Assembly (NCBI GenBank): GCA_903861205.1
Contig: CAIOTC010000020.1
Coordinates: 133,273-197,272, forward strand
From: an uncultured bacterium
GTDB taxonomy: Bacteria; Patescibacteriota; Minisyncoccia; Phycocordibacterales; DATDWN01
DNA length: 64,000 nucleotides
Reading direction: 5' to 3'
Shown here: positions 226 through 43,186 of the stretch, piece by piece
Position numbering within the stretch: position 1 is the stretch's first letter
Layout of the letters: each line of letters opens with the position of its first letter
Translations under genes and position numbers: made by a program
Notes under the pieces: model-generated
Database searches by the model: none
The model's input: only the letters and a program-made list of their open reading frames with translations
What the model was told of the DNA's origin: nothing

Positions 226-1986
226 TTACTCCAGCACCGCTTTGATGCGGCGGACACCCGCAGATACGGCTTCTTCTTTTGTGATGCGGAAGTGGCCGAG
301 AGTGCCGATGTTGTCGACATGCGGACCTCCGCAAAATTCTTTTGAGTGGGCTGTTTCGAGCGAGTCGCCGATGTAATAAATAGAAACTTCGTCGCCATAT
401 TTGTCGCCAAAAATGTGGGCAGCGCCGGTTTTTTCGGCCTCTTCTTTGTTCATTATTATTTTGTGCACCGGAAGTTTCAGCGAAATTTTTTCGTTGACCA
501 AATCTTCCACTTTCTTTTTTTCTTCGTCTGTCATTTTTCGCCCAAAATTAAAATCAAATCGCAGTCGCTCGGCGGTGATGTTACTTCCCTTCTGGGTAAT
601 TTCCGTTTGTAAAATTTCCTCCAGCGCCCGACGCAGTAAATGGGTAGCTGTGTGCAATTTTTTGTTTTCCTCACCCGCATCGGAGAGTCCGCCCTTGAAC
701 ATTCCGGCACTAGATGTTCGAGAAAGTTCCTGGTGTTTCTCCATGTCCTCGAAAAATTTCTTTTCATCAATTTCCACACCCTTTTCTTTTGCCAATTCTT
801 TCGTCATTTCCAGTGGAAAACCGTAAGTAGTAAAAAGTACAAACGGGCTTGTTCCCTTTTCAAATTCTTTCAAACCATTTTCCAAAGTTTTTTCGAATTT
901 TTCTTCTTCTTGGGATAAATTATCAAAAACAAAATTTTTGTTCTTTGAAAGTTCCGGATAAACATCACCAAACATTTCGATGACAACTTCGGCAATATCT
1001 TTGGTAAAAGATTTCATGCCCAGTTGTTTGCCATAACGTACTGCGCGGCGAATCAAGCGGCGTAAAACGTAACCCTGGCCAGTGTTGGACGGCGCGATTC
1101 CTTTTTCGTCGCCCAAAATAAACGTGGCCGCTTTCAAATGATCGGCAATAATGCGCATCGCTTTCACCAAGGTGTCACCTCGGTAAGTTTGTCCGGACAG
1201 CTTTTCAATCTTTTCGATAATCGGCCAGAAAAGTTCTGTGCGGTAATTGTCATCCAGGCCATTGACCACGGCCAAAGTTCTTTCGAGTCCCATTCCGGTG
1301 TCGACATTTTTTTGCGACAGTTGTTCGAATTTTCCGAGAGCGGTTTTATTGTATTGCATGAAAACGTCGTTCCAGATTTCGAGCCAAAGCGAATTATCAT
1401 CGTTGAAACTTTCCGGCACTTTGTCCGGCTCGCCAACCCAATAAAACATTTCCGTGTCCGGTCCGCACGGTCCCGTTTCCCCGGCCGGTCCCCACCAATT
1501 ATTTTTCTTCGGCAGTTTAGCAATTCTTTTTTCCGGAATTCCTAAACTTTTCCATGTTTCAAAAGCTTCATCATCAAAGGGCGCGTCAGAATCGCCCTCA
1601 AAAACAGAAACGGCCAGTCGATTTTTATCCAAGCCCAGCCATTTTGGTGAAGTCAAAAATTCAAAACTGAATTCAATGGCTTCTTTTTTAAAGTATTCTC
1701 CAAGCGACCAGTTGCCGAGCATTTCAAAAAAAGTGTGATGGCAGTAATCGCCGACTTCGTCGATGTCACCTGTTCTGATGCATTTCTGCACGTCGCAAAG
1801 TCGAGCTCCGGCCGGATGTTTTTCACCCAGCAAATATGGCACTAAGGGATGCATTCCAGCAGTGGTAAAAAGAACCGACGGATCATTTTCCGGCACCAAG
1901 GAAGCCGAAGGAATGACGGCGTGACCTTTTTCCTTGAAAAATTGCAGATATTTCTGGCGGATTTCGTTTGATGTCATAACTGACAT
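226..1986 (-). CDS. alaS: alanine--tRNA ligase, short form (catalytic + editing HxxxH/CxxxH domains, lacks long C-terminal C-Ala region)
   Basis: Motifs FTTAGMHPLVPYLLG, CIRTGDIDEVG, HTATHLL and CGGPHV in the 586-aa ORF. Confidence 0.92.
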   Translation of the reverse strand: MSVMTSNEIRQKYLQFFKEKGHAVIPSASLVPENDPSVLFTTAGMHPLVPYLLGEKHPAGARLCDVQKCIRTGDIDEVGDYCHHTFFEMLGNWSLGEYFKKEAIEFSFEFLTSPKWLGLDKNRLAVSVFEGDSDAPFDDEAFETWKSLGIPEKRIAKLPKKNNWWGPAGETGPCGPDTEMFYWVGEPDKVPESFNDDNSLWLEIWNDVFMQYNKTALGKFEQLSQKNVDTGMGLERTLAVVNGLDDNYRTELFWPIIEKIEKLSGQTYRGDTLVKAMRIIADHLKAATFILGDEKGIAPSNTGQGYVLRRLIRRAVRYGKQLGMKSFTKDIAEVVIEMFGDVYPELSKNKNFVFDNLSQEEEKFEKTLENGLKEFEKGTSPFVLFTTYGFPLEMTKELAKEKGVEIDEKKFFEDMEKHQELSRTSSAGMFKGGLSDAGEENKKLHTATHLLRRALEEILQTEITQKGSNITAERLRFDFNFGRKMTDEEKKKVEDLVNEKISLKLPVHKIIMNKEEAEKTGAAHIFGDKYGDEVSIYYIGDSLETAHSKEFCGGPHVDNIGTLGHFRITKEEAVSAGVRRIKAVLE

Positions 1987-2456: not shown

Positions 2457-3065
2457 CTAAATATATTTTTTCAGCACTTGAAAATCTTGGAGCAACGTCG
2501 TTTTGTGCGAACCGTTGTAAAGGGCGACAGCGGGATGATATAGGGGCACGATGTGAATTTCGCCGTAGCTCGTGCTAGCTACGAATTCCTTGCCGTGAAT
2601 TTCACTGATCGGACGGAGCATATCAAAAAGGCCAAATTTGTTCATAACATAACCCATGGAAAATCTGCCCAATGTGGCAATGACTTTCGGCTGGATAATT
2701 TCAATCTGCCTGTCCAGAAACGGCGCATACAAAATAATTTCTTCCGGCAAAGGATCGCGGTTTTCTTGCGGGCGGTCCTTGACCACGTTGGTGATATAAA
2801 CGTCGCTTCTGTTCAGTTTGATCGATTCGAGCATTTCGTCGAGGATTCTGCCGGATTGTCCGCAAAAAGGCCGAGCCGTTTGCGCTTCGTTTTTGCCCGG
2901 AGCTTCGCCGACAAACATGATTTTAGCCATGTGACTTCCCTCTCCGACCACCGGATAATATTTGTTTTCGACGCGATATTTGTAGAGCGGAGAATTTTCG
3001 AAATGCAAAAGTTCCTCGCGAATTTGTTTCAATTTTTCAAATCTTTCTTCAAGGCTAAGGGGCAT
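2457..3065 (-). CDS. uracil-DNA glycosylase, family 4
   Basis: Motifs MFVGEAPGKNE and PFCGQSG typical of family-4 UDG. Confidence 0.82.
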   Translation of the reverse strand: MPLSLEERFEKLKQIREELLHFENSPLYKYRVENKYYPVVGEGSHMAKIMFVGEAPGKNEAQTARPFCGQSGRILDEMLESIKLNRSDVYITNVVKDRPQENRDPLPEEIILYAPFLDRQIEIIQPKVIATLGRFSMGYVMNKFGLFDMLRPISEIHGKEFVASTSYGEIHIVPLYHPAVALYNGSHKTTLLQDFQVLKKYI

Positions 3066-3176: not shown

Positions 3177-4064
3177 TCATAGTGCCTTAATTTCTTCCAA
3201 AACTTTTTGTTTTTCATCTTCCGTCAAACCGACAGTATCCAGCAAACCCTGATTTTCGGCGATCGTTTTACAAAGCACAACACCCTGGGCCAAAAGTTCT
3301 TTTTTGGCAAAACCGGAAAGATTGACAAGGCACGTCAATGGGTGAAGTTTGGCCTCCAAAATCATATCGTGCAAATTGCCGTGAACCGGATAGTTCCAGC
3401 CGATCATGACCAAACGATTGCCCTGGTGCGAGCCATATTCAATAGCCGTAGTGGTGAATTTGGTGTTCGTCACCAACCAGCCCTCATCCAGTTTCCTCTC
3501 CTTCCCGCCGTAATTAAATGTCATTTCGCTCAAGTCGTCGAATCTTTCCTTGACGTAAAGTGCGATTTTCAAATCCGATTTTACGCCAAGCTGGTTGTGG
3601 AATTTGGCTTCCACCATGATGAGTTTTTGGTCGTTCCAAGCCACCACGTCGATTTCGTGCTCGACATATTTTCCGCGAACTTTCTGATCAGTTAAAGTCT
3701 CAAAACCTTTTTGCCGAAAAATTTCCGCCACGTAATCCTCGAATGCAAAACCGGACGGCCCGAGCTCCATGATGGCTCGGCGCAGAGAATATGTCACCGA
3801 CATTCTTCGATCTTCCTTGTGCAAAAGCTCGAACGCCCGAATATAAATATCGTGCGTCGTCATGTCGTCGATGATCGAATCTTTTATGTTGCTTATTATC
3901 GCTTCAACTGTGCTACTCGAAGCGCCGGCGTGTTTCAGCGACTGTTCAAGTTTTGTGCTGTCAAACGGCTCGCGCGTTCCATCCGCCTTAATGACAAAAA
4001 TTGATTCACTTTTTGGTTTTAAAATATCGCTTGGTTCAATAACATCTTTTATTTCTGTATCCAT
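3177..4064 (-). CDS. ATP-cone domain protein with C-terminal Mrr/restriction-endonuclease-like domain
   Basis: N-terminal VIKADGTREPFDSTKLEQSL ATP-cone; C-terminal HEIDVVAW...MVEAKFH nuclease-like core. Confidence 0.6.
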   Translation of the reverse strand: MDTEIKDVIEPSDILKPKSESIFVIKADGTREPFDSTKLEQSLKHAGASSSTVEAIISNIKDSIIDDMTTHDIYIRAFELLHKEDRRMSVTYSLRRAIMELGPSGFAFEDYVAEIFRQKGFETLTDQKVRGKYVEHEIDVVAWNDQKLIMVEAKFHNQLGVKSDLKIALYVKERFDDLSEMTFNYGGKERKLDEGWLVTNTKFTTTAIEYGSHQGNRLVMIGWNYPVHGNLHDMILEAKLHPLTCLVNLSGFAKKELLAQGVVLCKTIAENQGLLDTVGLTEDEKQKVLEEIKAL

Positions 4065-4072
4065 ACACTATA

Positions 4073-5233
4073 TTATTGCACAGCATCGATAACTCCGCCA
4101 CCAAGACAAACATCGTTGTCGTACAGCACAGCTGACTGGCCGGGAGCAACACCGTTTTGCGGTTCGTTAAAAAGAATATGCCAGCCATCTGATTCTTTCT
4201 CGATACTGCATTTTTGTTTTTCCTGGCGATAACGGATGCGAACGGAAAATTTCTCTGACACCCGGCGTGAAGTTTCCCAAACACCGGGTGTCGGAGAAAT
4301 TAAATGCAGATCTTTAATGACAACTTCTTTGGTCGAGAAAACCGCCTCACTTTCTGATTCTTTGTTTGCCACTGTGATAGTATTTTTTTCCAAATCTTTT
4401 GCCACCACGAAATACCGCGGATCGTTTGGTGACTTTTTAGTAATTGTAAATCCGTGACGTTCGCCGATGGTGTAAAGAATGGCGCCATCATGAAAACCAA
4501 TGACTTCCCCGTTCGTTTTCAGCACATCACCTTTTTTCGTTTTTATATAATGCGAAAGAAAATCTTTGATGTCCAAATTTTCCAAAAAACAAACGCCCTG
4601 GCTGTCTTTTTTTGTCGCAGTCGACAAACCAAATTTCTTGGCCAATTTTCTGACCTCCGGCTTGGTCAAATCTCCAATTGGAAAAAGTGTGTGAGAAAGT
4701 TGGTCCTGATCTAATGTGTACAGAAAATATGACTGATCTTTGTTTTTATCTTTTCCCTCAAGCAAATTGAAACAGGATTCATGATTCATGATGCATGAAT
4801 GGTGCTGGTTAATTATTCTTGAATCTTGACTCTTGAATCCTGAATCAACCCTTGCGTAGTGCCCCGTAGCCACGAAATCCACGCCAAGATCAAGTGCTTT
4901 TTTCAAAAACACTCCGAATTTCACATATTTGTTGCAAAAAACATCCGGATTTGGCGTTCGTCCGGCGCGATACTCGGCAATCATATAATCCACTACTTCC
5001 TTTTTGTATTCCTTTTCACAATCCAGCGTCATAAAAGGCACACCCAGCGTGGCACAAACCCGCATGGCGCTTCGTCTCTCCTCCTTCCAATCGCATGGCA
5101 ACCACTCCGGATGCCAGACCTTCAAAAACACACCAGTTACGTCATACCCCTGCTTTTTCAGCAACGCCAAAGCCACCGAGCTGTCCACTCCGCCCGAAAC
5201 TCCAACAAGGACTTTTTTGCCTTGACTTTTCAT
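4073..5233 (-). CDS. mnmA: tRNA-specific 2-thiouridylase MnmA (with an internal approx. 45-aa insertion)
   Basis: VLVGVSGGVDSSVA PP-loop, FCNKYVKFG and GHYAR motifs. Confidence 0.9.
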   Translation of the reverse strand: MKSQGKKVLVGVSGGVDSSVALALLKKQGYDVTGVFLKVWHPEWLPCDWKEERRSAMRVCATLGVPFMTLDCEKEYKKEVVDYMIAEYRAGRTPNPDVFCNKYVKFGVFLKKALDLGVDFVATGHYARVDSGFKSQDSRIINQHHSCIMNHESCFNLLEGKDKNKDQSYFLYTLDQDQLSHTLFPIGDLTKPEVRKLAKKFGLSTATKKDSQGVCFLENLDIKDFLSHYIKTKKGDVLKTNGEVIGFHDGAILYTIGERHGFTITKKSPNDPRYFVVAKDLEKNTITVANKESESEAVFSTKEVVIKDLHLISPTPGVWETSRRVSEKFSVRIRYRQEKQKCSIEKESDGWHILFNEPQNGVAPGQSAVLYDNDVCLGGGVIDAVQ

Positions 5234-6733: not shown

Positions 6734-7981
6734 TTATATCGGCAAGTTTGACGGCGCTTCGGATTTCTTCGAGCCAATGCGTGTGAACGACGGTGAGGTG
6801 GCCAAACCTCCGGCTGGGAAGTGGAAAATCGTCGCTAGTTCCTCAGTGTTCAAAACAAATGACGGTTTTTTGAATTCGTTGTAAAACCAGGCACGATGTT
6901 TATATGAGTTTAACAACTTTCTTTTTTCTTTATCGATTGTTTTCTTTGGCCTTTTTATAAACGGAAAATACTTGTATTCGCCCTCCGGATGCGATTGCGG
7001 TTTAAAACCATTCAAATTGTTTGAGTTGTAATTTTTGAAACCACCCATAATACCAACAGTATTGCCGGCGGAATAAAGGTCTTTGGACGCGGTATATATG
7101 GCACGAATACCGACATCAAAACCAAGTTTAGAAATGCTTCTTTCGATGGCGTGGACAACTTCCTCTTCACCTTTTGTTAAACGTCTAGCTGGCCCCGGCT
7201 TCCCATCTTCGCCCTTCTCGCCTTTTGTTTTTTCAAGAATTTTTTTAATTTCGTCTCCCGCGCCTTTTTCCCACTTTTTATCTATCGGTTTTCCGCCATC
7301 GGGGTTTTTATCTTCCGCTTTGTGTGCACGAATAATAATTTGAATCCATGCTTGGTGTTCTCTGCCGAGAGATCCCATGAATTCTATGAGCGGAGTCATC
7401 GGATCAATTCTGTATTCTTCCTTCGGATCTTTATCCATTCCATAATCAACATATGTTTTTATGGGAAACGGGTCAGGTTTAGTCAGAGCGAACTCTTTGG
7501 CCCACAAACTATTTTTTTCCGGATCATAACTGTAAAGTAAAGTGTAATCCGGCGCTTCATAAACTTCTATGCCGGGAAACTGCGAATACAAACTGGCTTC
7601 GATGACGTTCTTCAAACCTTTGCGAGTCCAAATGAAAAAATGGATCGAGCCATCTATGGAAACAATTTCCAAAGAATACCACGGCCTTGTTTGACCTTTG
7701 AAATTTCTAACCCACCAATCACCCTCCTGGCCTGTTTGGTGCAAACCGTTGAAAAAAATTTCCATGGCCAAAGGCGATTTGAAAATTTCACGCGGGAGTT
7801 TCATTTCCAGCAAAACATATTCTTGCTTGGCAAAAAATTTAGCCCGGACGTATGTAATCCACAACTCCCACAGCAAAATGAAAAGTAGGGCCGGCAACCA
7901 AACAAAAGAGGTTTGGTACAAAATTTTCATCGCCAAAGCAACATGCGGACTTGTGAAAAAGGAGATGAATGGCTGTAACAT
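6734..7981 (-). CDS. hypothetical membrane-anchored protein with Lys/Glu-rich low-complexity segment
   Basis: 415-aa ORF, N-terminal TM helix, no recognisable catalytic motif. Confidence 0.5.
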   Translation of the reverse strand: MLQPFISFFTSPHVALAMKILYQTSFVWLPALLFILLWELWITYVRAKFFAKQEYVLLEMKLPREIFKSPLAMEIFFNGLHQTGQEGDWWVRNFKGQTRPWYSLEIVSIDGSIHFFIWTRKGLKNVIEASLYSQFPGIEVYEAPDYTLLYSYDPEKNSLWAKEFALTKPDPFPIKTYVDYGMDKDPKEEYRIDPMTPLIEFMGSLGREHQAWIQIIIRAHKAEDKNPDGGKPIDKKWEKGAGDEIKKILEKTKGEKGEDGKPGPARRLTKGEEEVVHAIERSISKLGFDVGIRAIYTASKDLYSAGNTVGIMGGFKNYNSNNLNGFKPQSHPEGEYKYFPFIKRPKKTIDKEKRKLLNSYKHRAWFYNEFKKPSFVLNTEELATIFHFPAGGLATSPSFTRIGSKKSEAPSNLPI

Positions 7982-8035
7982 GGTCTAATTATAATACACA
8001 ACAAACAAAAAAGAAAACATGTAAATCTCGTCGAG

Positions 8036-8197
8036 CTCGCATCATTTTCGGAGCATCCGCAGACCTCGAGCATGGTTTTGTCAACGACCCTGTGATATGG
8101 GTGCCCTTTGGGCAATATCACAGGGCTCATTGACAAATTGAGGCCGAGGACAGAGAAAGCCCGTCGCTGGACGGGCTTTCGTCTCCGAAAATGATGT
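8036..8197 (+). repeat. family-A structured intergenic element, copy 2
   Basis: Same architecture; closing stem tcattttcggag/ctccgaaaatga; internal hairpins differ but remain paired. Confidence 0.6.
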
Positions 8198-8220
8198 GAG
8201 TTCGTAAGAGATTTACTCGC

Positions 8221-9270
8221 TTAAGCTACCGCGTATTTGCCTTCTTTTGTTTTCTTGAAATATTTTGGATTCTGGAGATTGACCATGATGGTATTTTCCT
8301 TGACGTATCTTTCTTTCATCACTTTCTCGATAATTTTATCTTTCGGAAGCGGGCCATTTTTCTCCAAAATTTCTTTGATGACATCCTTGACCACACCGCT
8401 CATGTATCCCCACTCTGTCAGCGCGTAAAGTCCTCGGCCAACCAGAACGAATCGCGGATCTTTGATGAGTTCATTGTGTGTCGTGGCCACATGCGCTTTC
8501 TTGCTGAAAAGTTCAGTGATCAGTTTGGCCACTTCGCGGAAATGGATCGGGCTGCCGTGTCGGCGGATAACCAAGTAAGCGTAATCGCGCATGCCTTTTG
8601 CGTTGATGTTCGATGAGCGAGACTTGCCCCATTCGCCGAGCGGATTTTTATCGATCAGCTTGGAAAGTGTCAACCAACGTTTGGCAATTTCCTCGGTTTT
8701 GTATTTGTCGGAAACATCTTTCAAATTTTCCAAAAACTTGGCAACCATGTCTGATTCGAGCAAAATTTCATCGTCTGAAAGGGTACTGTAAAGCTTGCGG
8801 AGCGACTCATGAATTTTCTTTGAAAGCTCTCGGTCCACGTGCCATCGGTGTTTGAATTCGTCATCCTCTTTTTCTTTGATGAATTCTTCGCCGACAACCA
8901 GCATAAAGTGAATATGGTTTTGAGTCGATTTATCTTTGGAAATATGCTTCAAAAAGCTTTCCTCGGAAACCATCGTGCCGAGTTCAACCATGATGTTTTT
9001 GATTTCGTCAAAGGCCGGCTTTTCCTTGGCATATTCTTTCGACTTGCGGATATTGATAATCGAATAGCTTTCGATTTGGCGTACTCTTTCGCGAGTTATT
9101 TTATATTTCTTGCCGATTGCTTCAAGCGTCATACGCTTGGTATCTGCGCCCAAGCCAAAACGTCCGTTAATGACGTCTTGCGCGCGCGCGGAAAGAACGG
9201 ACAGCATCCTCTTCACAACTTGCTTTGGCTTGAATGTTATTGTTGTTTTTTCGCTCATAAAATGTTGCAA
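8221..9270 (-). CDS. DNA-binding protein: sigma-70 region-4-like HTH plus C-terminal HARE-HTH (RpoE-delta-like) domain
   Basis: LSARAQDVINGRFGL...TLEAIGKKYKITRERVRQIE (sigma r4) and FVLVGRGLYALTEWGY (HARE-HTH). Confidence 0.6.
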   Translation of the reverse strand: MQHFMSEKTTITFKPKQVVKRMLSVLSARAQDVINGRFGLGADTKRMTLEAIGKKYKITRERVRQIESYSIINIRKSKEYAKEKPAFDEIKNIMVELGTMVSEESFLKHISKDKSTQNHIHFMLVVGEEFIKEKEDDEFKHRWHVDRELSKKIHESLRKLYSTLSDDEILLESDMVAKFLENLKDVSDKYKTEEIAKRWLTLSKLIDKNPLGEWGKSRSSNINAKGMRDYAYLVIRRHGSPIHFREVAKLITELFSKKAHVATTHNELIKDPRFVLVGRGLYALTEWGYMSGVVKDVIKEILEKNGPLPKDKIIEKVMKERYVKENTIMVNLQNPKYFKKTKEGKYAVA

Positions 9271-9355
9271 AATTATTACTAAGTGCTAATAGTTACAACG
9301 AATGTATGTTATTTGTATCATTATTGACAATTTAAGTCAAGGAGTCACGAAAACC

Positions 9356-9463
9356 GGCTCAAACAATGCTTTTCCGTCGCCAGAATATTTTTCTGCTGAA
9401 AAATTTCTTCCTGCTCGCCTCTTCACGGGCTCCGCAATGCGACGGAAAAGCATTGTTTGAGCC
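9356..9463 (+). repeat. family-B element, copy 1: 66-nt conserved core in the loop of a 25-bp stem
   Basis: Core CGTCGCCAGAATATTTTTCTGCTGAAAAATTTCTTCCTGCTCGCCTCTTCACGGGCTCCGCAATGCGACGG; stem ggctcaaacaatgcttttccg/cggaaaagcattgtttgagcc. Confidence 0.6.
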
Positions 9464-9471
9464 GATTTTTT

Positions 9472-12417
9472 CTAAACTATCACAAAGTTCAGCAACCTAT
9501 CCTGAATATGAATTGTTTTAACAATTTTTTTGCCGGACAGCCACTTATCCACATCCGGCATTTTCTGGGCCAAAGAAACCGCCTCGTCCTGCGTTTGGCC
9601 GGCCGGAACAGTCATTTGGGCTCGCACTTTGCCGTTTATTTGGACGACAAAAGATACTTCGCTTTCTTTCATTTTTTTCGGATCGGCCTTGGGCCATTTT
9701 TGCGCCGATAGAGATTTTTTATTACCAACAACCTGCCACAATTCCTCGGCAATATGCGGAGCAAACGGAGACAGAAGCAAAATCAATTTTTCGTATTGCT
9801 CGCGAGAAACTTTTTCCGCTTTTTCGAATTCATTAACCAAAATCATCATGGCACTAATAGCCGTGTTGAAATGCATCGTCTCGATATCGTCCGTAACTTT
9901 TTGGATTGTTTTGTGGAGTAGAGTTTCTGTCGTAGCTAACGCCTTATTTTTTTCATTGGCAAGGGTGCCCCTTGCCACTTTGAATTGCAGTCGCCACACG
10001 CGTTCCAAAAAGCGTCGCGATCCGGAAATGCTGTTCGTATCCCACGCGATGGCCTGATCAAACGGACCCATAAACATTTCGTAAACGCGCAAAGTATCGG
10101 CGCCGTACATTTTGACAATATCGTCCGGATTTATGACATTTCCGCGCGATTTTGACATTTTTTCGCCATTTTCAGCCAAAATCATGCCGTGCGAGGTGCG
10201 TTTTTGGTAAGGCTCCTTTGTCGGCACGAGTTTCTGATCATACAAAAATTTGTGCCAAAATCGCGAATAAAGCAGATGCAAAGTGGTGTGTTCCATGCCG
10301 CCGTTGTACCAATCAACAGGAGTAAAATATTTTAAATTTTTTGGATCAGCAAATTTTTTGCTATTTTTTGGATCGGCGTAGCGCAGGTAGTACCACGACG
10401 AACCGGCCCAGTTTGGCATTGTGTCCGTTTCTCGCCTGGCTTTGCCGCCACATTGCGGACATTTAGTATTAACCCACGATGAAATGTCAGCCAGCGGAGA
10501 CTCGCCAGTGTCAGTCGGTTTGTAATTTTTCACCTTTGGCAAAACAAGCGGCAAATCTTTTTCCGGAATAGCGATCCAGCCGGGGTTTGCAAGCTCACCT
10601 TCTGAAAATTCTGATTTTGAATTTTTATTGGAAATTGGAAATTGGAAATTGGAAATTCGTTTTTTGCAATTTTCGCAAAAAACGGTCGGTATCGGCTCGC
10701 CCCAATATCTCTGGCGCGAAAAAATCCAATCGCGCAGTTTGAAAGTTTCCACCCATTTTCCTCCGGCGAATTCGGTGATTTTCTTTTTTACATCTTCGCT
10801 AGACAATCCATTGAATTCTCCAGAATTTATCGAAACACCTTCATCGCAAAAAGCATGAACTGGATTATTAAATCGATCGTCCCAAATAAAAAATTCCGCG
10901 CATTTCAAATTTTTGTCTGATTTCAATTCCTGCCAGCTCATCCAAGCGACTTCGTGCTTATTTTTTTCATCTTCAGTCACAATGGCTCTTTTTTCACTAG
11001 CCAACTCGAAAACTATCGTGCTGAAATGTGCCTTTCTGTTTTCATCTTTATGCTCAGCGTAAAAATGACACTCCACCGGACCGCCGAGAGTTTTGATGTA
11101 TTTCAATTCGCTGTAACCTGTCTCCTCCAAAATTTCGCGTCGAGCAGCCTCAATTACGTCTTCACCTCCCTCAACTCCGCCGGTCACAAATGTCGTCCAT
11201 GGAAATTTTTTCCAGCGCAAAGTCAAAATCTTTTTTGTTTTTGGATCGATGATGATGGCGTGAATGGCATTTCTTTCGACGGTTTTTTTGTCCGCTCTCG
11301 GAAGTTCAGTTTGGTCAGTTACTTTTGGCACAATCACTTCGCGAATCGGCAAATTGTACTTTTGGGCAAATTCAAAATCGCGATCATCATGAGCCGGCAC
11401 GGCCATGACGGCACCCGTGCCATAGTCAGCCAAAACGTAGTCGGCAATGAAAATCGGAACCAGCTCACCATTGGCCGGATTTATTACCCTGATGCCTTTC
11501 ATTTCCACGCCGGTTTTTTCTTTCTTGTCATCCATCCTGTCAATGGCCGATTTGGTCGAAACGGATTTTATATAATTTTCGACTTCTTGTCTGTTTTTCA
11601 AAAATTCCAAAAGTTTGCCGACCATTTTGTGTTCGGGAGCCAGCACTATATATGTCACCCCAAAAAGCGTATCAGGGCGCGTGGTAAAAACTTTTATTTT
11701 ATCCTTTTGGCATTGGCAGAAAAAATCAATCTCGGCGCCTTCGCTTCGGCCGATCCAATTTCTCTGCTGCGTTTTTATTTGTGGCAAATAGTCGACGAGG
11801 TCGAGATCCTTGTCCAATCTGTCGGCGTATTTGGTGATAGCCAGCATCCACTGCTCCTTTTCGCGCTTTTCCACCGGCGTGCCGCACCTCTCGCAACAGC
11901 CACCCACCACCTCCTCGTTGGCCAAACCGATTTTATCTTTCGGACACCAATTAATCGACATTTTCTTTTTGTAAGCCAAACCATTTTTGAACATCTGCAG
12001 AAAAATCCACTGCGTCCATTTGTAATATTTTGGGTCAGTCGTGTTTATTTCCCGCGACCAGTCAAAAGACATTCCCAATCCTTTAAATTGTTTTCTGAAA
12101 TTATCGGTATTCGTTTTTGTGACAATGGCTGGTTGAATCCCAGTTTTAATCGCATAATTTTCCGTCGGCAAACCGAAAGCATCCCAACCAATTGGAAAAA
12201 GAACATTAAAATCTTCCATCCTGCGTTTACGAGAGATAACATCCATTGCGGTATAACCGCGAACATGACCGGTGTGAAGTCCGTCACCGGACGGGTACGG
12301 AAATTCCATCAAAGAATAATACTTTTTGCCTTTGCTTTTGGCCTGGAAAGTTTTTTTTCTTTCCCATTCTTTTTGCCATTTTTTTTCAATAGATAGATGG
12401 TTGTACTCTTTTGGCAT
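9472..12417 (-). CDS. leuS: leucine--tRNA ligase carrying an inserted Nudix-hydrolase domain (residues approx. 378-500)
   Basis: HTGHVRGYT (HIGH), TTRPDT editing motif, KMSKS; Nudix box GGVEGGEDVIEAARREILEETGY in the insertion. Confidence 0.93.
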   Translation of the reverse strand: MPKEYNHLSIEKKWQKEWERKKTFQAKSKGKKYYSLMEFPYPSGDGLHTGHVRGYTAMDVISRKRRMEDFNVLFPIGWDAFGLPTENYAIKTGIQPAIVTKTNTDNFRKQFKGLGMSFDWSREINTTDPKYYKWTQWIFLQMFKNGLAYKKKMSINWCPKDKIGLANEEVVGGCCERCGTPVEKREKEQWMLAITKYADRLDKDLDLVDYLPQIKTQQRNWIGRSEGAEIDFFCQCQKDKIKVFTTRPDTLFGVTYIVLAPEHKMVGKLLEFLKNRQEVENYIKSVSTKSAIDRMDDKKEKTGVEMKGIRVINPANGELVPIFIADYVLADYGTGAVMAVPAHDDRDFEFAQKYNLPIREVIVPKVTDQTELPRADKKTVERNAIHAIIIDPKTKKILTLRWKKFPWTTFVTGGVEGGEDVIEAARREILEETGYSELKYIKTLGGPVECHFYAEHKDENRKAHFSTIVFELASEKRAIVTEDEKNKHEVAWMSWQELKSDKNLKCAEFFIWDDRFNNPVHAFCDEGVSINSGEFNGLSSEDVKKKITEFAGGKWVETFKLRDWIFSRQRYWGEPIPTVFCENCKKRISNFQFPISNKNSKSEFSEGELANPGWIAIPEKDLPLVLPKVKNYKPTDTGESPLADISSWVNTKCPQCGGKARRETDTMPNWAGSSWYYLRYADPKNSKKFADPKNLKYFTPVDWYNGGMEHTTLHLLYSRFWHKFLYDQKLVPTKEPYQKRTSHGMILAENGEKMSKSRGNVINPDDIVKMYGADTLRVYEMFMGPFDQAIAWDTNSISGSRRFLERVWRLQFKVARGTLANEKNKALATTETLLHKTIQKVTDDIETMHFNTAISAMMILVNEFEKAEKVSREQYEKLILLLSPFAPHIAEELWQVVGNKKSLSAQKWPKADPKKMKESEVSFVVQINGKVRAQMTVPAGQTQDEAVSLAQKMPDVDKWLSGKKIVKTIHIQDRLLNFVIV
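9957..9979 (-). repeat. in-frame palindromic mini-insert GTGGCAAGGGGCACCCTTGCCA inside leuS (encodes KVARGTLAN)
   Basis: Identical 23-24 nt shared with cysS and recR; perfect 10-bp stem with a 3-nt loop. Confidence 0.75.
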
Positions 12418-13528: not shown

Positions 13529-14566
13529 TCAAATTCTAAACTCCACAACATCACCATCCTTGACCACATACTCCTTCCCTTCCGTTCTCACAAGCCCTTT
13601 TTCGCGGGCCTTCGCGTAGGAGCCGGCAGAGAGCAGTTTGTCCCATTCGATCACTTCGGCACGAATAAATTTGTCGCGGAAGTCGGTGTGAATGGCCATG
13701 CCAGCCACGGGCGCAGTGCTATCGCGAACAATCGTCCAAGCGCGCGACTCGTCCTCACCGGTCGTGAAATATGTCATCAGGTTCAAAGTCTCGTACGCTT
13801 TTTTGATAAGATCGTCAAAACCTTTTTCAAAAATCGGATCAACTTCGACGTACGGCCCGGGAATTCCCGCCTCGTCGGTGGGCAAATTTTCTTTCACTTC
13901 GGTCAAGTTTTTGGCCGCTGCTTCTGAAGCGTTGAGCACATACAAAATTGGCTTCATGCTCAAAAGTTGCAAAAGTTTTACGTATTCGATTTCCTTTTCG
14001 TCCAAACTAGCAAGAACTGTTCTTGCTAGTTTACTGTCCTCTAAAACTTTTTGGATTTTGGCCAGTGCCTCACCCTCTTCGACCGCTTCTTTTTTGTGAG
14101 ATTTGATATCCTTTTGCAGACCGGCGCGGCGTTTTTCCACCGTCTGCAAGTCCGCTAAAATAAGTTCAAGGTTTATGACCTCAATATCGGAGAGCGGATC
14201 GATTTTATTGTGCACGTGAATGATATCTTTGTCCTCGAAAATCCGCACCACCTCAGCGATGGCATCCACCTCACGAATATTCTGCAAAAATTTATTGCCG
14301 AGCCCCTCACCCATCGATGCGCCCTTGACCAGCCCCGCGATGTCGACAAACTCCACCACGGCCGGAATGGTTTTGGCCGACTTGCTGAACTCCGACAATT
14401 TCCACAGTCGATCGTCCGGCACCGGCACAATCCCGACCGACGGATCAATCGTGCAAAAAGGATAATTCTCCGCCGGCACGGCTTTTTTTGTCAGCGCATT
14501 AAAGAGCGTCGACTTGCCGACGTTCGGGAGGCCCACGATTCCTATACTTAGAGCGGAAGACGTCAT
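13529..14566 (-). CDS. ychF: ribosome-binding ATPase YchF (Obg-like)
   Basis: GIVGLPNVGKSTLFNALT G1 motif; TGS-like C-terminus DGDVVEFRI. Confidence 0.92.
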   Translation of the reverse strand: MTSSALSIGIVGLPNVGKSTLFNALTKKAVPAENYPFCTIDPSVGIVPVPDDRLWKLSEFSKSAKTIPAVVEFVDIAGLVKGASMGEGLGNKFLQNIREVDAIAEVVRIFEDKDIIHVHNKIDPLSDIEVINLELILADLQTVEKRRAGLQKDIKSHKKEAVEEGEALAKIQKVLEDSKLARTVLASLDEKEIEYVKLLQLLSMKPILYVLNASEAAAKNLTEVKENLPTDEAGIPGPYVEVDPIFEKGFDDLIKKAYETLNLMTYFTTGEDESRAWTIVRDSTAPVAGMAIHTDFRDKFIRAEVIEWDKLLSAGSYAKAREKGLVRTEGKEYVVKDGDVVEFRI

Positions 14567-16259
14567 TGTTTTTGTTTAAATTATCGTGTTGTGTAGCGTC
14601 CGAGCCATAGCTATATTCAGGACAGAAGAAGACATAAATTTCGCTTAGATTTATTAGACCGTACACTTGCAAGTCATTGGTGCCAGCCAGCACTTTGTTA
14701 ATAACTTGTCTAATAATGGCCTGTTTTGCTTTAAAATTCAAGCCCTTGAGTTTTTGTAATGCTTCCCCTGCAAACATTTTAACCTCGTCTTCGTTCGGTA
14801 ACAGCACATCATCCTTTGTTACGGCTTCCAAATGAGCTTTGTTTATTTGATCTTCAAATGAACGAATTTTTTCTCGCAAGGGTTTTACATATTCTTCAAA
14901 CTTCTCAAGTGTGATAACTTCCTGAGCATATGCTTTGGCAAAGCGGTCCTCTTGCGATCGCAATTTTACGATTTCTTTTTGCGTCAGATCGGTATCAATT
15001 GACATTTTGTTCAGCACATTATTTCCGCGAGTATTTTTCCATCGCTCGATTTGCTCAAGCAGCAAAGTCGGTGAACTCATAACCTCTTTCATTCTTTCCC
15101 ATACAGCCTCGTCGGCAATTCTGGCGTTGATTCCTGGTTGTTTGCATGTCGGAGGAAATGGAAATGTATGGACACGATTGGTGCATCTGTAATAGAGGTG
15201 TTTGCCTTTCTGCACACCTTCCCCTGCCCTTCTGCCACCACAGACACACCAAATCATGCCAGCCAAGAGATATTCGTTTACTTTGTTTCTGCCAAGAGTC
15301 TCAAAATTCTTTTTCAATCGCAATCCAGCCCGTATAAACAAATCTTTGTCTTCGATAATCGCAGGGACTGTTATCGGGTACCATTCAGTTTTTGGTCTCA
15401 TTTTCCTGCTAGTCTTTTTTATTTTCCTGTACTTTTCAAATTTTTTCGGATTTTCTGGAACTACCGCATATGATGCTCCCCAGTATGTCGTGCCGATAAA
15501 AACCTCGTGTCTTAACAATGTGCTGAGAGTGCTTGTACTCCAAACACCTTTAAGACTTTTTCTTGGTTTTATACCAGTTTTTTGCAACTCTCTGACAACA
15601 CCCCTGACAGTCAATCCATCATCAGCAACCATTTTAAATATATTCTTTATAACATTCGCTTCATATTCGTTGATTTCGTAATGACCGACAACATACTCTG
15701 GAGTTCCGCGTTTTCCTTTGTTTGGAATGTAGTTATAGCCGTATGGAGCTTCGCTGGTCAGGACATGGCCATTTTTAACTCTGCTAATTTTTCCTAATCG
15801 AAATCTTTCTTTGATCTTCATGCGTTCATACTCAGCAAAAACACCTCTCATTTTATACATGATGACATCCTCGTCATTTTTTGGTGGAGGTATAGTAACA
15901 AAAAGTACAGGAATCTCCAGCTCCGATAATTCTTCTATTATCAGTTCTTGCCAAGCACCTCGTCTTGCTAATCGATCTGGGTCATAGGTAAGCACGGCAT
16001 CCCAAATTCTCTTTTTTGCATCAATTCGTAACTGATCAAGATCTGGCCGATACAGTATGTCCCCGCTCCATCCCTCGTCTTTGTATGTTTTAACAATTTC
16101 AAAACCGTGTTCTTTGGCATAAGAATTTACTTCTGCTAGTTGGACCTCAATTGTCTGTTGGTCCTCCTGATTTGAGGTTGAGACCCTTGCATACAAGGCT
16201 ACGAATTTGATGTTTTTTTGTGTTAATTCAATCATGGTTTTGTTGTTATATTTTAGCAA
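14499..16259 (-). CDS. large serine recombinase / integrase (resolvase domain + recombinase domain + zinc ribbon); C-terminus overlaps the ychF 5' end by about 68 nt
   Basis: ALYARVSTSNQ catalytic Ser motif; CVCGGRR...YYRCTNR zinc ribbon; long coiled-coil C-terminus. Confidence 0.85.
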   Translation of the reverse strand: MLKYNNKTMIELTQKNIKFVALYARVSTSNQEDQQTIEVQLAEVNSYAKEHGFEIVKTYKDEGWSGDILYRPDLDQLRIDAKKRIWDAVLTYDPDRLARRGAWQELIIEELSELEIPVLFVTIPPPKNDEDVIMYKMRGVFAEYERMKIKERFRLGKISRVKNGHVLTSEAPYGYNYIPNKGKRGTPEYVVGHYEINEYEANVIKNIFKMVADDGLTVRGVVRELQKTGIKPRKSLKGVWSTSTLSTLLRHEVFIGTTYWGASYAVVPENPKKFEKYRKIKKTSRKMRPKTEWYPITVPAIIEDKDLFIRAGLRLKKNFETLGRNKVNEYLLAGMIWCVCGGRRAGEGVQKGKHLYYRCTNRVHTFPFPPTCKQPGINARIADEAVWERMKEVMSSPTLLLEQIERWKNTRGNNVLNKMSIDTDLTQKEIVKLRSQEDRFAKAYAQEVITLEKFEEYVKPLREKIRSFEDQINKAHLEAVTKDDVLLPNEDEVKMFAGEALQKLKGLNFKAKQAIIRQVINKVLAGTNDLQVYGLINLSEIYVFFCPEYSYGSDATQHDNLNKNNDVFRSKYRNRGPPERRQVDAL

Positions 16260-23366: not shown

Positions 23367-24061
23367 TTAGATAGATATTTTCATTCCTGGTCCAATATAT
23401 TCAATTTTGTCACCAACATCCTTTATCGCTTGCCCATCCTGTAATAGATACACCTTCCATGGAAAATCCATTATCGTTTGCAAATATTTTTTTCGCTCAG
23501 TGTATTTTTTCACATTTTCAGATTCGTTACTTTCTTTTTGGTGTGGAAGCAAAATAAAGTCAGTGATTTTTAATCCGACATGGTCAGTTGGATCATTCGG
23601 CTCCCACCAACCAAATCCAATATCTGGCCCAAGTAGACAACTACCAGCACTTGTGCCAATATACACCACACCCTTATCGAGCAAATTTTTCAGATATGTG
23701 TCCAATTTTGATTTCTTCGCCCAGTCAAGCAAATAGTTCACATCGCCACCGCAAACATCGATAATATCCACACTATTCAATTTTTCTTTTATTTTTTCCG
23801 AGTCATCTTTCAAATCTGCAACCACCACATCATATCTTTTTTCTTTTAGTATAAATATTCCTTGCTCGCTTCCACTTTATTTTCGCTGATTAACTTTGCA
23901 ACAAATTTTGTGCTGTCGGTTGAATATGGGCCCCATTCAATAATATCGCCAGCTGTCGGTATTAGTGCGACTTTTAGATTTGTTTTGCCACCAGTGATCT
24001 CTAGAAAGTCTTTTTCCAGAGAGGAACCGATAAAGCCATTTGATGTTAGAAGTAAATTCAT
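23367..24061 (-). pseudogene. pepE: peptidase E / S51 dipeptidase gene split into two ORFs (23846..24061 N-terminal part, 23367..23828 C-terminal part)
   Basis: N-terminal LLLTSNG...ALIPTAG and C-terminal GTSAGS nucleophile motif lie in separate ORFs. Confidence 0.6.
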
Positions 24062-24558
24062 TTATTTAATTTTTCTTTCATCTCCAATGCTCGCTCCACA
24101 AGTCGATCTCCGATTTTTCCCCAGTCAAAATATTTTTTGAAATCTTTTGGATCAATAAGTTTAATTTCTGAAATATCTCCATCTGGATCAGATTCAAAAT
24201 CTCCGTATGGTTCGACGATGGCAAACATTCTAAACTGTCTTTGAATTCTATTTTCTCCTGGTGTCTCGATGTCTTGATAGCCAATACATTCCTGACGGAG
24301 AACTTTCATATTTGATTCTTCTTTTATTTCTCTTACTGAAGCATCCTCGTATGTTTCGCCTTTTTCAATACTTCCACCAGGAGGAGTCCATCTACCATTT
24401 TCATGTCCAACAATTACCAGTTTGTTATTATAAAAACAGAAAGCATGTACGCCATCTAGCATTTTTGGATCTGTTTCAGCGGTTGGCACACCGTCATGAT
24501 AAGTGAAATTGAATATTTTCCCATCATATTCAAATTGTGATTTTATTTCCATATTCAT
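24058..24558 (-). CDS. Nudix hydrolase
   Basis: Nudix box GGSIEKGETYEDASVREIKEESN. Confidence 0.85.
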   Translation of the reverse strand: MNMEIKSQFEYDGKIFNFTYHDGVPTAETDPKMLDGVHAFCFYNNKLVIVGHENGRWTPPGGSIEKGETYEDASVREIKEESNMKVLRQECIGYQDIETPGENRIQRQFRMFAIVEPYGDFESDPDGDISEIKLIDPKDFKKYFDWGKIGDRLVERALEMKEKLNK

Positions 24559-24607
24559 TAGTATAACTTATTATTTTTTGACTTCATAGTTAAACATAGG
24601 TGCTGGC

Positions 24608-39881: not shown

Positions 39882-41123
39882 TTACAAAAACAGCAAATTA
39901 CGATCCACTTCGTCGGCTTCGGTGCCTTTGACTTTGCGCTTCAACGCTTTGTGAGTGGAAGCGAGGTAAACAACGCGCTTGCCGAATTTGTCTTCAAGCG
40001 AGTCGATCTGTTTGTGGATTGTTTCGAACTTTCGCGCCTTGTCCGTTTCGCCAAACAAATCCGCCTGCGAGACAGACTCCGGGGCAAGCTCCTGCAAAGT
40101 GACACCAGCTGTCCGGTACAAAACGCCGGGTCGGTGCATTTTGGAAAAATATTTGCGTGCCAAAGAAATCAGAGTTTCCGGAGCATTTGTCGGCGATGAA
40201 AGAACGGCCGAAAAAGCGTCGTACCTGAAATTTTGGGTTTTGAGAAAAAAAGAAATTTTGCGCGGAACCAGTTTATAATGCCGAGCCTTGGCGCAAGCTT
40301 CCTCGATATGTTTCGAAAGTTGTGAAAGCAAAAAATTTTTGTCGTTTGTTGGCGGATGAAATGTCCGTGTTTTTTGAACCGATGAATAAACGGTTTTCGG
40401 CTCCGGATCGATTTCCAAAACGTAAACGCCGTTGAGCTCCAACCAAATGATTTCGTACGGCTTGGAAAGATTTTCTTTGACCCATGAAATATTTTTTCCA
40501 ACGAAGTCCTGGGCCGTGACAATCCCCCTACTTTTCAAAAATTTGGAAGTTTGCGGACCGATGCCCCAGATTTTTTCGATCGGCGTTTTGGACAGAAATT
40601 CCGGCGCTGTCTTTTTTTCAATGACAGAAAGTCCGTCCGGCTTTTTCCATTTCGACGCCACCTTGGCCAAAACTTTTGTCGGCGCCAATCCCACCGAAAC
40701 CGACAAACCGAGCTCGCTGACCACTTCGCGTTTAATCCGCTCGGCGATTTGCAAATATGTCATACGAAGCGTTCGATCGAGACCCGTTAGCTCGGCAAAA
40801 CATTCGTCGATGCTATATTCCTCGACATCATCCGCGTATCGGCGAACGATCTGGAACATGTCGTTCGAATATTTTGCGTACGAAGCGTAATCCCCCGGCA
40901 AAATCAATACGTTGGGAAATTCTTTTTTCAATTTAAATATTGGCATTCCGCGCACAATACCGAGTGCCTTGGCTTCGTATGAAAGCGCCGAAACGATTCC
41001 GCGTTCCTCGCCTGTCACCACCGTTCGTCCGCGCAAAGCCGGATTTTTGGCCACCTCGCAAGCCACGAAAAAAGCGTCGCCATCCATGTGGAAAATAACT
41101 TTGTCTCGCGGGATAGTTTTCAT
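39882..41123 (-). CDS. dinB: DNA polymerase IV (Y-family)
   Basis: FHMDGDAFFVACE, SIDECFAELTG catalytic motifs. Confidence 0.9.
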   Translation of the reverse strand: MKTIPRDKVIFHMDGDAFFVACEVAKNPALRGRTVVTGEERGIVSALSYEAKALGIVRGMPIFKLKKEFPNVLILPGDYASYAKYSNDMFQIVRRYADDVEEYSIDECFAELTGLDRTLRMTYLQIAERIKREVVSELGLSVSVGLAPTKVLAKVASKWKKPDGLSVIEKKTAPEFLSKTPIEKIWGIGPQTSKFLKSRGIVTAQDFVGKNISWVKENLSKPYEIIWLELNGVYVLEIDPEPKTVYSSVQKTRTFHPPTNDKNFLLSQLSKHIEEACAKARHYKLVPRKISFFLKTQNFRYDAFSAVLSSPTNAPETLISLARKYFSKMHRPGVLYRTAGVTLQELAPESVSQADLFGETDKARKFETIHKQIDSLEDKFGKRVVYLASTHKALKRKVKGTEADEVDRNLLFL

Positions 41124-41552: not shown

Positions 41553-42116
41553 TTACCTCGTCTCGTAACCCTGCACAAGCTCGCCGATTTCCATATTTTT
41601 TTCGTCCAAATGAACCCAGATGCTTTTCCCGAGCGACGGTTGAACAGCAAAACTCTCGCCTGGATTTCTGTCAGCGTAGTTAACCACCGCTACGCCTTTT
41701 TGAATTTCGATATTTTGCGGAGCGATTCTGTCGCCGACAAACATGGCGTTTGTCCCTTTGTACACACCGCCTTTATTTATTGCCTCAACCACGTAAAAAA
41801 ATGTTCCGCTGCCACCAGAGTTCTCGGTCAAATACATCACTGCGTCACTCACTCCATCGCCATTTAGGTCGCCGTAAACCGGCTGGCCGAAAACCGCCAC
41901 ATTATCTTTTTCCGCTTTGCCGTTTACCAGCCTAAAATATTTTCCGGCAACATTGTAAGTGATATTGAGCGGATCGTTTTTGACCGTTTTCGTTTTGTCA
42001 TATTTCAAAATAAAATTGACCACATTCCCAACCCACAATTTCTGCGTGGCTAAAAGTCCGAGCCCGATGATTATCAAAACCAAAAGCACGATTTGAAGCG
42101 TTTTGTTGTTTGTCAT
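41553..42116 (-). CDS. hypothetical membrane-anchored protein
   Basis: N-terminal TM, soluble beta-rich domain. Confidence 0.45.
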   Translation of the reverse strand: MTNNKTLQIVLLVLIIIGLGLLATQKLWVGNVVNFILKYDKTKTVKNDPLNITYNVAGKYFRLVNGKAEKDNVAVFGQPVYGDLNGDGVSDAVMYLTENSGGSGTFFYVVEAINKGGVYKGTNAMFVGDRIAPQNIEIQKGVAVVNYADRNPGESFAVQPSLGKSIWVHLDEKNMEIGELVQGYETR

Positions 42117-42299
42117 GCGAGTATTATATCACATCCAAACCGCAACCATCGTGAGTAAAATTTTTCAAATATTCATCGCAGAAATTTTCTCTTTCGTCGC
42201 CTTTCAAAAAGTCCGGAGCAAAAACTTTTATTTTGTAAGGCATTATGGTCAGTTTGGTTTTGCTTCCGTCAAATTCAACTCCAACGACGACTTCTCGTA

Positions 42300-43030: not shown

Positions 43031-43186
43031 ACTACCCGCCCATATTCCATTGCCAAAGTATACGCTCTTTGTTTGTAATGAAGAACATAAGTCCACCGGC
43101 TGCTGCGCAGAAGCAGAAACAACAACGCAGAAAGTAAGGCCAGCCCGCAAGAATAGTGATGTGCACATGTAATAGTTCTCCACTAG

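Follow-up and report, generated by a model that had tools for sequence, protein, structure and literature searches.

What is a Nudix hydrolase doing inside a leucyl-tRNA synthetase (LeuRS), and does it serve leucylation or merely travel with the enzyme that houses it? The question is raised by the leuS gene (9472..12417, minus strand) of an uncultured patescibacterium, found in a 64,000-nucleotide stretch of contig CAIOTC010000020.1 (assembly GCA_903861205.1) that was analyzed as a whole and is referred to below as “the window”, its own numbering being used throughout. The open reading frame (ORF), the NCBIfam profile TIGR00396, an AlphaFold2 (AF2) model and Foldseek comparisons all identify the product as a complete bacterial-type LeuRS, which, together with the Nudix module nested in it, amounts to 981 amino acids (aa). 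A first-pass annotation, made from the sequence alone, had noticed a canonical Nudix box in this protein and had placed the respective domain between the CP1 editing domain and the second half of the catalytic core; both the guest, as a Nudix fold, and the host, as a bacterial LeuRS, are bona fide, while the position of one within the other is a different one.

The whole inserted module comprises aa 363-520 (158 aa; 10858..11331, minus strand), as delimited by alignments to the Thermus thermophilus LeuRS (Tth) and to two homologues without the insert, P0017 and P0093. It has the size of a free-standing Nudix protein, includes an N-terminal ‘P..(G/D)KK.VER’ extension and a C-terminal helix, and the same span is also covered by free-standing homologues of 155-190 aa. 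The Pfam NUDIX profile (PF00293) matches aa 382-501 (10915..11274, minus strand) and covers positions 3-122 of the 134 in the profile; its 60.6 bits (gathering threshold 21.1; E = 2e-16) are far above a chance match, and the interval singled out at first, 10918..11286, corresponds exactly to aa 378-500. The metal-binding/catalytic motif, G413-x5-E419-x7-R427-E428-I-L-E431-E432-T-G434-Y435 (11113..11181, minus strand), reads GGVEGGEDVIEAARREILEETGY and fits the Gx5Ex7REUxEExGU consensus at every position. In the AF2 model the region is an alpha/beta/alpha sandwich of the Nudix type with block means of pLDDT of 86-95 and folds as a separate module, and all 35 of the family members scanned match PF00293. 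Box, profile and predicted fold thus agree in assigning the module to the Nudix superfamily (PF00293): it is an autonomous fold nested in a surface loop of CP1, with its metal-binding/catalytic box complete, and this anatomy, along with the catalytic competence that it implies, can be regarded as very probable, judging from the sequence and the model.

As for the placement, aa 4-362 align with Tth 3-362 and aa 521-584 with Tth 375-442; since the alignment blocks break at aa 362/521, aa 363-520 replace a 12-residue loop, Tth 363-374. The N-terminal part of CP1 (aa 219-362; 11332..11763, minus strand) covers positions 1-154 of the 185 of the editing-domain profile PF13603 and aligns with Tth 221-362, whereas its C-terminal part (approximately aa 521-560; 10738..10857, minus strand), which runs into the LRDWIFSRQRYWGEPIP core motif and aligns within Tth 375-442, comes only after the Nudix module, so that some 40 CP1 residues lie beyond it. 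The two parts are contiguous in the insert-less P0017 and P0093, and in P0017 the PF13603 match is unbroken over positions 1-183 of 185. The module is therefore nested inside CP1 and not located between CP1 and the catalytic core, even though the flanking segments, GTGAVMAVPAHDDRDFEFA upstream and LRDWIFSRQRYWGEPIP downstream, had been described correctly. The editing domain had, furthermore, been thought to be about 60 residues shorter than that of Escherichia coli; this was a misreading, as the domain aligns approximately one to one with those of both Tth and E. coli up to the insert. What does lack a counterpart is the leucine-specific domain (Tth 585-636), the gap falling at about position 10160 (minus strand), between aa 752 and 753, and this absence may be the source of the impression of a “shorter” enzyme. 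Nor is the Nudix-like region a known LeuRS-specific domain, because the leucine-specific one occupies another part of LeuRS and is not present in this protein.

The sequence of the host enzyme shows nothing that would hint at impaired function. Its score against the whole-protein profile TIGR00396 (leuS_bact) is 989 bits (cut-off 548.4), and that against PF13603 is 219 bits; the class I motifs and a CP1 domain with its threonine-rich motif and aspartate are all in place, as befits a LeuRS of the bacterial type. The HIGH motif (HTGH, aa 48-51; 12265..12276, minus strand) has H48, G50 and H51 invariant in the homologue alignment, the KMSKS motif occupies aa 753-757 (10147..10161, minus strand), and the residues of the threonine-rich editing motif TTRPDT (aa 245-250; 11668..11685, minus strand) are kept in 118-119 of 120 homologues, P248 being the exception (100/120). 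D344 (11386..11388, minus strand), located in GTGAVMAVPAHD and the counterpart of the universally conserved editing aspartate of LeuRS, is invariant in 120/120. The full-length AF2 model (pLDDT 87.6, pTM 0.78) finds the T. thermophilus and E. coli LeuRS as its top Foldseek matches (E about 1e-80), and the fold is the same as that of the canonical structures (1H3N/2BTE and 4AQ7/4ARC, respectively; TM-score 0.82-0.86 normalized to the target), with which it shares HIGH, KMSKS, CP1 with both its threonine-rich motif and catalytic aspartate, the anticodon-binding domain and the C-terminal domain. It differs from them in having the 158-aa Nudix module instead of the short Tth loop, in lacking the leucine-specific domain and in possessing an extra disordered loop of 28 aa (aa 585-612). 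With its synthetic motifs and editing-site residues intact, this appears to be a normal LeuRS as far as the sequence goes, and there is no sign in it of a Nudix domain standing in for a lost editing function.

The extra loop, KKRISNFQFPISNKNSKSEFSEGELANP (10582..10665, minus strand), is absent from the close homologues P0004, P0005, P0017 and P0093, is modeled as disordered (pLDDT below 50 at aa 594-601), and lies near the variable region that follows the YWGEPIP...C motif. Another observation on the gene itself concerns a 480-aa ORF antisense to leuS (10954..12396, plus strand), which is almost certainly no real gene but a shadow of the conserved leuS frame.

Trivial origins of such an architecture can be set aside. 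An assembly chimera or a frameshift is ruled out by the uninterrupted ORF, the identical NCBI/ENA protein (P0003) and more than 100 homologues of the same architecture; a recent foreign insertion is ruled out by the GC content of the insert, which matches that of the gene (0.42 vs 0.434 for leuS), as well as by the sharing of the insert clade-wide; and an intein seems to be ruled out too, given that no Hint/intein Pfam match was found in the protein and that the junctions, EVI/VPK and NPV/HAF, are without intein splice-site residues.

The same arrangement is widespread in the candidate phyla radiation (Patescibacteria) lineage. The first-pass annotation had proposed a survey of related LeuRS sequences, and a full-length search, from which the best 120 homologues (51-72% identity to the window LeuRS) were taken, recovered PF00293 in 118/120 of them, those that carry names being assigned to Patescibacteria, Parcubacteria or Paceibacter. 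When a segment of 251 aa, comprising the insert and the LeuRS sequence on either side of it, was searched exhaustively against 1.84 billion cluster representatives (clustered at 50% identity), at least 150 of these were retrieved at E <= 1e-30; every one listed is compatible with a LeuRS that has the insert, and most of the 150 listed gave a single continuous match across the insert and both flanks. Scans of GTDB species genomes and of metagenomes, which are samples and not censuses, point the same way: among the GTDB matches listed, leuS contains the domain in patescibacterial loci (a Magasanikbacteria genome among their sources), whereas the Firmicutes LeuRS among those matches are without it. 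A Nudix domain in an aminoacyl-tRNA synthetase had been called unusual, and so it is when compared to every characterized synthetase; it is not, however, peculiar to this genome, being the majority state among the closest patescibacterial LeuRS. Public databases annotate these proteins as leucine--tRNA ligase or “class I tRNA ligase family protein”.

The manner in which the module has been conserved is informative as well. Among the 118 domain-bearing homologues, the box positions are retained at near invariance (G413 in 118, E419 in 113, R427 in 114, E428 in 118, E431 in 116 and E432 in 117), G434 is present in 119/120 aligned sequences, and R382, W402, K403, W407, H456, K457, N460, R461, E484, H488 and W492 are further residues conserved in the family. 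Mean identity to the window protein is nevertheless only 46% for the Nudix domain; the catalytic core reaches 76-77%, and the anticodon-binding and C-terminal region 47%. That the box has stayed nearly invariant while the rest of the domain drifted points to purifying selection on the catalytic motif, a pattern that, as far as alignments can tell, is the signature of an enzyme selected for catalysis.

Has the module been inherited as a fixed part of LeuRS? Apparently not. Over the columns that they share with the window LeuRS, P0017 and P0093 reach 76-77% identity and are thus closer to it than any Nudix-bearing homologue, yet they are without the module, with only a short loop at the insertion point (‘IHQVIK SEIDSDK AYTGEG’ in P0017); the gene order around the P0017 gene, YchF - DUF5671 - leuS - sigma70_r4/HARE-HTH, is the same as in the window. 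Members of the same Nudix family are, moreover, found at three sites of LeuRS, with some proteins containing two or three copies: the site of the window, after ‘KYNLPI.EVI’; a second one before the N-terminal CP1 linker ‘QRNWIGRSEG’; and a third one just after that linker, before ‘VFTTRPDT’. Canonical-box copies before the linker are 62-69% identical to window-site copies in other LeuRS, and P0126 and the leuS of locus L098 carry the module solely at an alternative site. The presence of one family at alternative sites indicates that the module has moved within LeuRS with the association being kept, and the sequences compared thus portray it as gained, lost and moved among the three sites.

Two paralogous types participate in this traffic, one with the canonical box (Gx5E...RE..EE), to which the window copy belongs, and the other with a degenerate box (Gx5Q...AE..EE), which is the source of most second copies in LeuRS and also occurs free-standing. 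The full canonical box is found in 174/200 window-site copies, that of the window included. Examples of the degenerate type are found in the homologues P0008, P0042, P0123 and P0126 and in the free-standing P0272, P0277, P0283 and P0284; it might pair with the canonical type as a pseudo-dimer.

Free-standing patescibacterial genes of the family encode proteins of 155-190 aa that score 170-192 bits against the family profile. Three of these (P0271, P0263 and P0287; 161-163 aa) are 39-47% identical to the window module over 125-136 aligned residues, most of the module being covered, and have the canonical box; P0271 and P0263 share the N-terminal ‘NPP..GKK.VxR’ extension of the window module, P0287 only its ‘ER’. 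They differ from the module in being separate polypeptides adjoining a LeuRS without the insert, and two of them are encoded immediately upstream of leuS in a YchF...leuS neighborhood like that of the window. In one such locus, L081 (GCA_040384245.1), P0271 (47% identical to the window module) lies 579 bp upstream of an insert-less leuS, in the order YchF ... Nudix - leuS - sigma - DUF8128 - YceG, which the minus-strand order of the window (YceG - 415-aa ORF - sigma - leuS - DUF5671 - YchF) matches, the sigma and YchF proteins being 67% and 63% identical to their window counterparts. In two others (L091 and L092), P0287 ends 2 nt before the start codon of an insert-less leuS, with YchF and DUF5671 a few short ORFs upstream. 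A side observation on L081 is that its insert-less LeuRS (leuS at 7071..9494) is only 45-46% identical, unlike the flanking proteins, which suggests that leuS was displaced there by one of a different lineage, or diverged faster, while the Nudix persisted upstream as a gene of its own.

In the sampled data, then, the canonical-box family is mostly located in or next to leuS. When the metagenome scan was seeded with free-standing canonical-box proteins, 9/9 strong relatives among the matches listed proved to be embedded in LeuRS, and in the Pfam architectures shown for the family, Nudix either stands alone or accompanies the LeuRS editing domain, no other combination being shown. Fusion together with a conserved neighborhood speaks for a functional link to LeuRS, or at least for selection on co-expression, and we lean slightly toward a functional tie of the module to its host.

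The best explanation overall, which we nevertheless hold only tentatively, is that a whole Nudix pyrophosphohydrolase of a Patescibacteria-specific family is nested in CP1 of a complete LeuRS, making the protein bifunctional. The second, independent active site would ride on the mobile editing domain, and tethering or operonic coupling would keep the hydrolase stoichiometric with LeuRS; as the association is kept whatever the position, it would be co-localization or stoichiometric co-expression that matters, and not precise channeling. Chemically, the module would presumably require Mg2+ to split a pyrophosphate bond in adenine-nucleotide compounds that the synthetase forms as by-products, the best candidate substrates being dinucleoside polyphosphates (e.g., Ap4A and Ap3A), made from Leu-AMP with ATP or ADP, and the products would be reusable mononucleotides, which might suit an organism presumably living on salvaged nucleotides.

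The clearance of such ApnA by-products is ranked first because synthetases generate Ap4A and Ap3A from the aminoacyl-adenylate, LysU being an example of an Ap4A producer (PMC9437257). An HHalign comparison with human NUDT2 (an approximate NUDT2 sequence was used) reaches 93% probability, which reflects the shared fold, and sets Y453 opposite NUDT2 Y87, with a basic hairpin after this conserved aromatic residue. F452 and Y453, at +17 and +18 after the box, are always aromatic in the family (F65/Y48 and F72/Y42). A tyrosine some 16-18 residues after the Nudix box, stacking on adenine, is a hallmark of ApnA hydrolases, and the alignment of the tyrosines may accordingly be taken as a hint, if a weak one, toward this type of enzyme. 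When the family profile was compared to PDB sequences, the lupin (1f3y, 1.4e-8), Aquifex (3i7u, 3e-6) and human (3u53, 1.7e-4) Ap4A hydrolases were all matched, interleaved, however, with decapping, NADH, DIPP and ADP-ribose enzymes: the best match was the mRNA-decapping effector AvrM14 (2.9e-9), and 2azw, NudB and the NADH/NAD-cap enzymes NUDT12 and NudC also ranked high.

Several observations weigh against such a role. None of the named Nudix subfamily models in NCBIfam comes near its cut-off, be it NudI (26.6 bits vs 95), NudB (25.6 vs 103), YtkD (21.1 vs 154) or NudE (20.1 vs 169), and the closest structure, the Enterococcus faecalis MutT/nudix protein 2AZW (a free-standing structural-genomics entry with 19% identity to the module), is functionally uncharacterized, which together leave the substrate assignment weak. 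To our knowledge, LeuRS is not among the strongest Ap4A producers. The clean absence of the module from P0017 and P0093, in near-identical contexts, indicates that it is dispensable for LeuRS, and the LeuRS loops of some relatives have accommodated other catalytically intact hydrolases. One of these is an RBBP9/YdeN-type serine hydrolase (PF06821/PF00561), found just after the N-terminal CP1 linker in P0006, P0020, P0034, P0045 and P0074, with a GHSLG nucleophile elbow in 4/5 and AHSLG in P0034; in P0034 and P0074, which are 1336-1351 aa long, it is joined by two Nudix copies. The other is a HAD phosphatase with a DFDGV motif (P0023), inserted in the loop region of the disordered 28-aa segment of the window protein, some 50 residues further on. 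Insertion of unrelated, intact hydrolases suggests that LeuRS may be merely a permissive carrier, and the neighbors of some free-standing family members fit a carrier of housekeeping nucleotide hydrolases as well: degenerate-box genes adjoin a HAD gene (L084 and L085) or NDK/ADK/GMK (L087), and canonical-box ones adjoin a nucleoside deoxyribosyltransferase (L093) or a uracil-DNA glycosylase (UDG; L088) gene. An ApnA-type substrate is, all in all, a possible but rather unlikely assignment for the module. Among the three substrates named in the first-pass annotation (aminoacyl-AMP, Ap4A and NAD caps), the Ap4A type is still the most defensible and aminoacyl-AMP the least.

These same observations are what sustains the strongest competitor, a serious one even if less probable than not: that the module is a passenger, a general sanitizer of the nucleotide pool or salvage pyrophosphatase (acting on NTP/dNTP, oxidized nucleotides or nucleotide sugars) with no mechanistic link to leucylation, CP1 loops simply tolerating insertions and the fusion guaranteeing nothing but constitutive co-expression in a small genome. 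Close relatives that are without the insert and otherwise unchanged, three unrelated hydrolase families (Nudix, serine hydrolase and HAD) inserted at several loops, the nucleotide-metabolism neighbors of free-standing members, and a relocation between sites that implies no need for a fixed geometry would all be expected of a passenger. Random permissive insertion, however, would hardly account for a canonical-box type so overwhelmingly located in leuS or directly upstream of it, at times with a gap of 2 nt, or for an association kept across at least 150 clusters and through repeated relocation.

Considerably less probable is a module acting on RNA ends in the manner of RppH, NudC or AvrM14, for instance by stripping the 5'-triphosphate, an NAD cap or an Np4A cap from transcripts held by LeuRS, such as precursors of tRNA(Leu). 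The top rank of AvrM14 among the PDB sequences, along with the high ones of NUDT12 and NudC, the conserved basic and aromatic residues (R382, K403, K457, R461, W402, W407 and W492) and the location on a domain that handles the acceptor end of tRNA would agree with it, but the similarities are at the level of the generic Nudix fold, the RppH models (NCBIfam PRK00714) give 21.6-26.3 bits against cut-offs of 116-118, and the occurrence at three sites and as a separate gene argues against a precise RNA-docking geometry. The 5'-monophosphate of mature tRNA is, besides, made by RNase P.

An aid to pre-transfer editing, the hydrolysis of misactivated aminoacyl-adenylates (Nva-AMP, Ile-AMP) released by LeuRS that had been suggested initially, is very improbable: the module does sit in the editing domain and is tied specifically to an editing synthetase, but an aminoacyl-AMP is an acyl-phosphate mixed anhydride and not a nucleoside diphosphate linked to another moiety, hence chemically atypical for Nudix enzymes (the aminoacyl-AMP hydrolases known to us are HIT proteins), the fully conserved CP1 hydrolytic site leaves no editing gap to fill, and the module is both dispensable and relocatable. 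Equally little can be said for a Nudix fold retained only as a ligand sensor or a dimerization or RNA-binding surface, since the degenerate-box paralogues (E to Q, RE to AE), in LeuRS and free-standing, do indicate that non-catalytic use occurs in the wider family, while the window copy, like most of the window-site copies, has the full canonical box, and the catalytic Glu/Arg residues are the most conserved positions of the domain.

Returning to the putatively bifunctional LeuRS, how does it relate to systems already described? ApnA hydrolases (lupin 1F3Y, human NUDT2 3U53, Aquifex 3I7U and T. thermophilus Ndx1) are free-standing and 15-25% identical to the module, and we know of no Nudix dinucleoside-polyphosphate hydrolase fused to a synthetase. 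Another parallel is an isoleucyl-tRNA synthetase with an N-acetyltransferase (GNAT) domain (NCBIfam NF040702), likewise a class Ia synthetase with an added enzyme domain that modifies small molecules, but the synthetase, the fold and the chemistry are all different, and the window protein scores 74 bits against its cut-off of 1999. No NCBIfam model specific to a LeuRS with a Nudix domain was matched by the window protein, no description of such a fusion was found in the full-text literature searched, and a 2022 review on how synthetases diversified is silent on Nudix. The architecture is real, widespread in one radiation and apparently undescribed.

Few enzymes have been studied as thoroughly as aminoacyl-tRNA synthetases, and catalytic domains added to them, the editing domains for example, have each revealed a new quality-control step. 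Here, much of the candidate phyla radiation has retained an intact pyrophosphatase that became re-associated with leuS time and again, a pattern suggesting an unrecognized need linked to leucylation or to the nucleotide economy of ultra-small symbiotic bacteria. Viewed at the level of its family, the finding holds more interest than the one gene does by itself. A broader proposal, to which we would attach less credence still than to an ApnA substrate, is that patescibacterial LeuRS serves as a platform for cis-acting hydrolase modules, with a leuS-dedicated Nudix in up to three copies at three sites and a serine hydrolase or HAD phosphatase in some lineages, constituting a new layer of synthetase by-product clearance or proofreading. 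If that were the case, the Nudix module would destroy ApnA or adenylate-derived products of LeuRS, the esterase and the phosphatase would process aminoacyl esters and nucleotide monophosphates, and a new quality-control or salvage function would be built into an aminoacyl-tRNA synthetase. Should the module be only a passenger, it would still illustrate clearly how nesting one domain in another can secure co-expression in reduced genomes. In either event, the natural versions with the insert, without it and with a separate Nudix gene offer an experimental system for studying synthetase by-products and their clearance in vivo, and the several insertion-tolerant loops of CP1 would be useful for engineering.

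Elsewhere in the window, a second Nudix ORF (24061..24567, minus strand; 169 aa; Pfam NUDIX 50 bits) has a canonical box, GGSIEKGETYEDASVREIKEESNM; it was considered as a same-family partner and ruled out, as the family profile gives it only 19.9 bits, its similarity is confined to the surroundings of the box and it is unrelated to the LeuRS-type family. The listed ORF of a large serine recombinase (14499..16259, minus strand; 586 aa; Resolvase, Recombinase and a zinc ribbon) shares 68 nt with the start of ychF; the recombinase may lie at the border of an integrated element beside the leuS neighborhood. Scans of the window with Rfam and for tRNAs found nothing. The ORF of an alanyl-tRNA synthetase (AlaRS; 226..1986, minus strand) contains the class II catalytic domain and, at its very C-terminus, tRNA_SAD in 586 aa, compared with about 870 aa for a typical bacterial AlaRS, so that the C-Ala region of the C-terminus is apparently absent or carried by another gene. 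The GC content rises to 0.567 at 42001..44000 (0.43 for the window), where two ORFs (42425..43183 and 43187..44047, minus strand) have no Pfam match, and a gene for a Y-family polymerase (IMS; 39882..41123) lies near this spike. Lastly, an ORF at 3177..4064 (minus strand), flanked by a UDG gene (2457..3065) and mnmA (4073..5233), shows the uncommon pairing of an ATP-cone with an Mrr-type restriction endonuclease catalytic domain.

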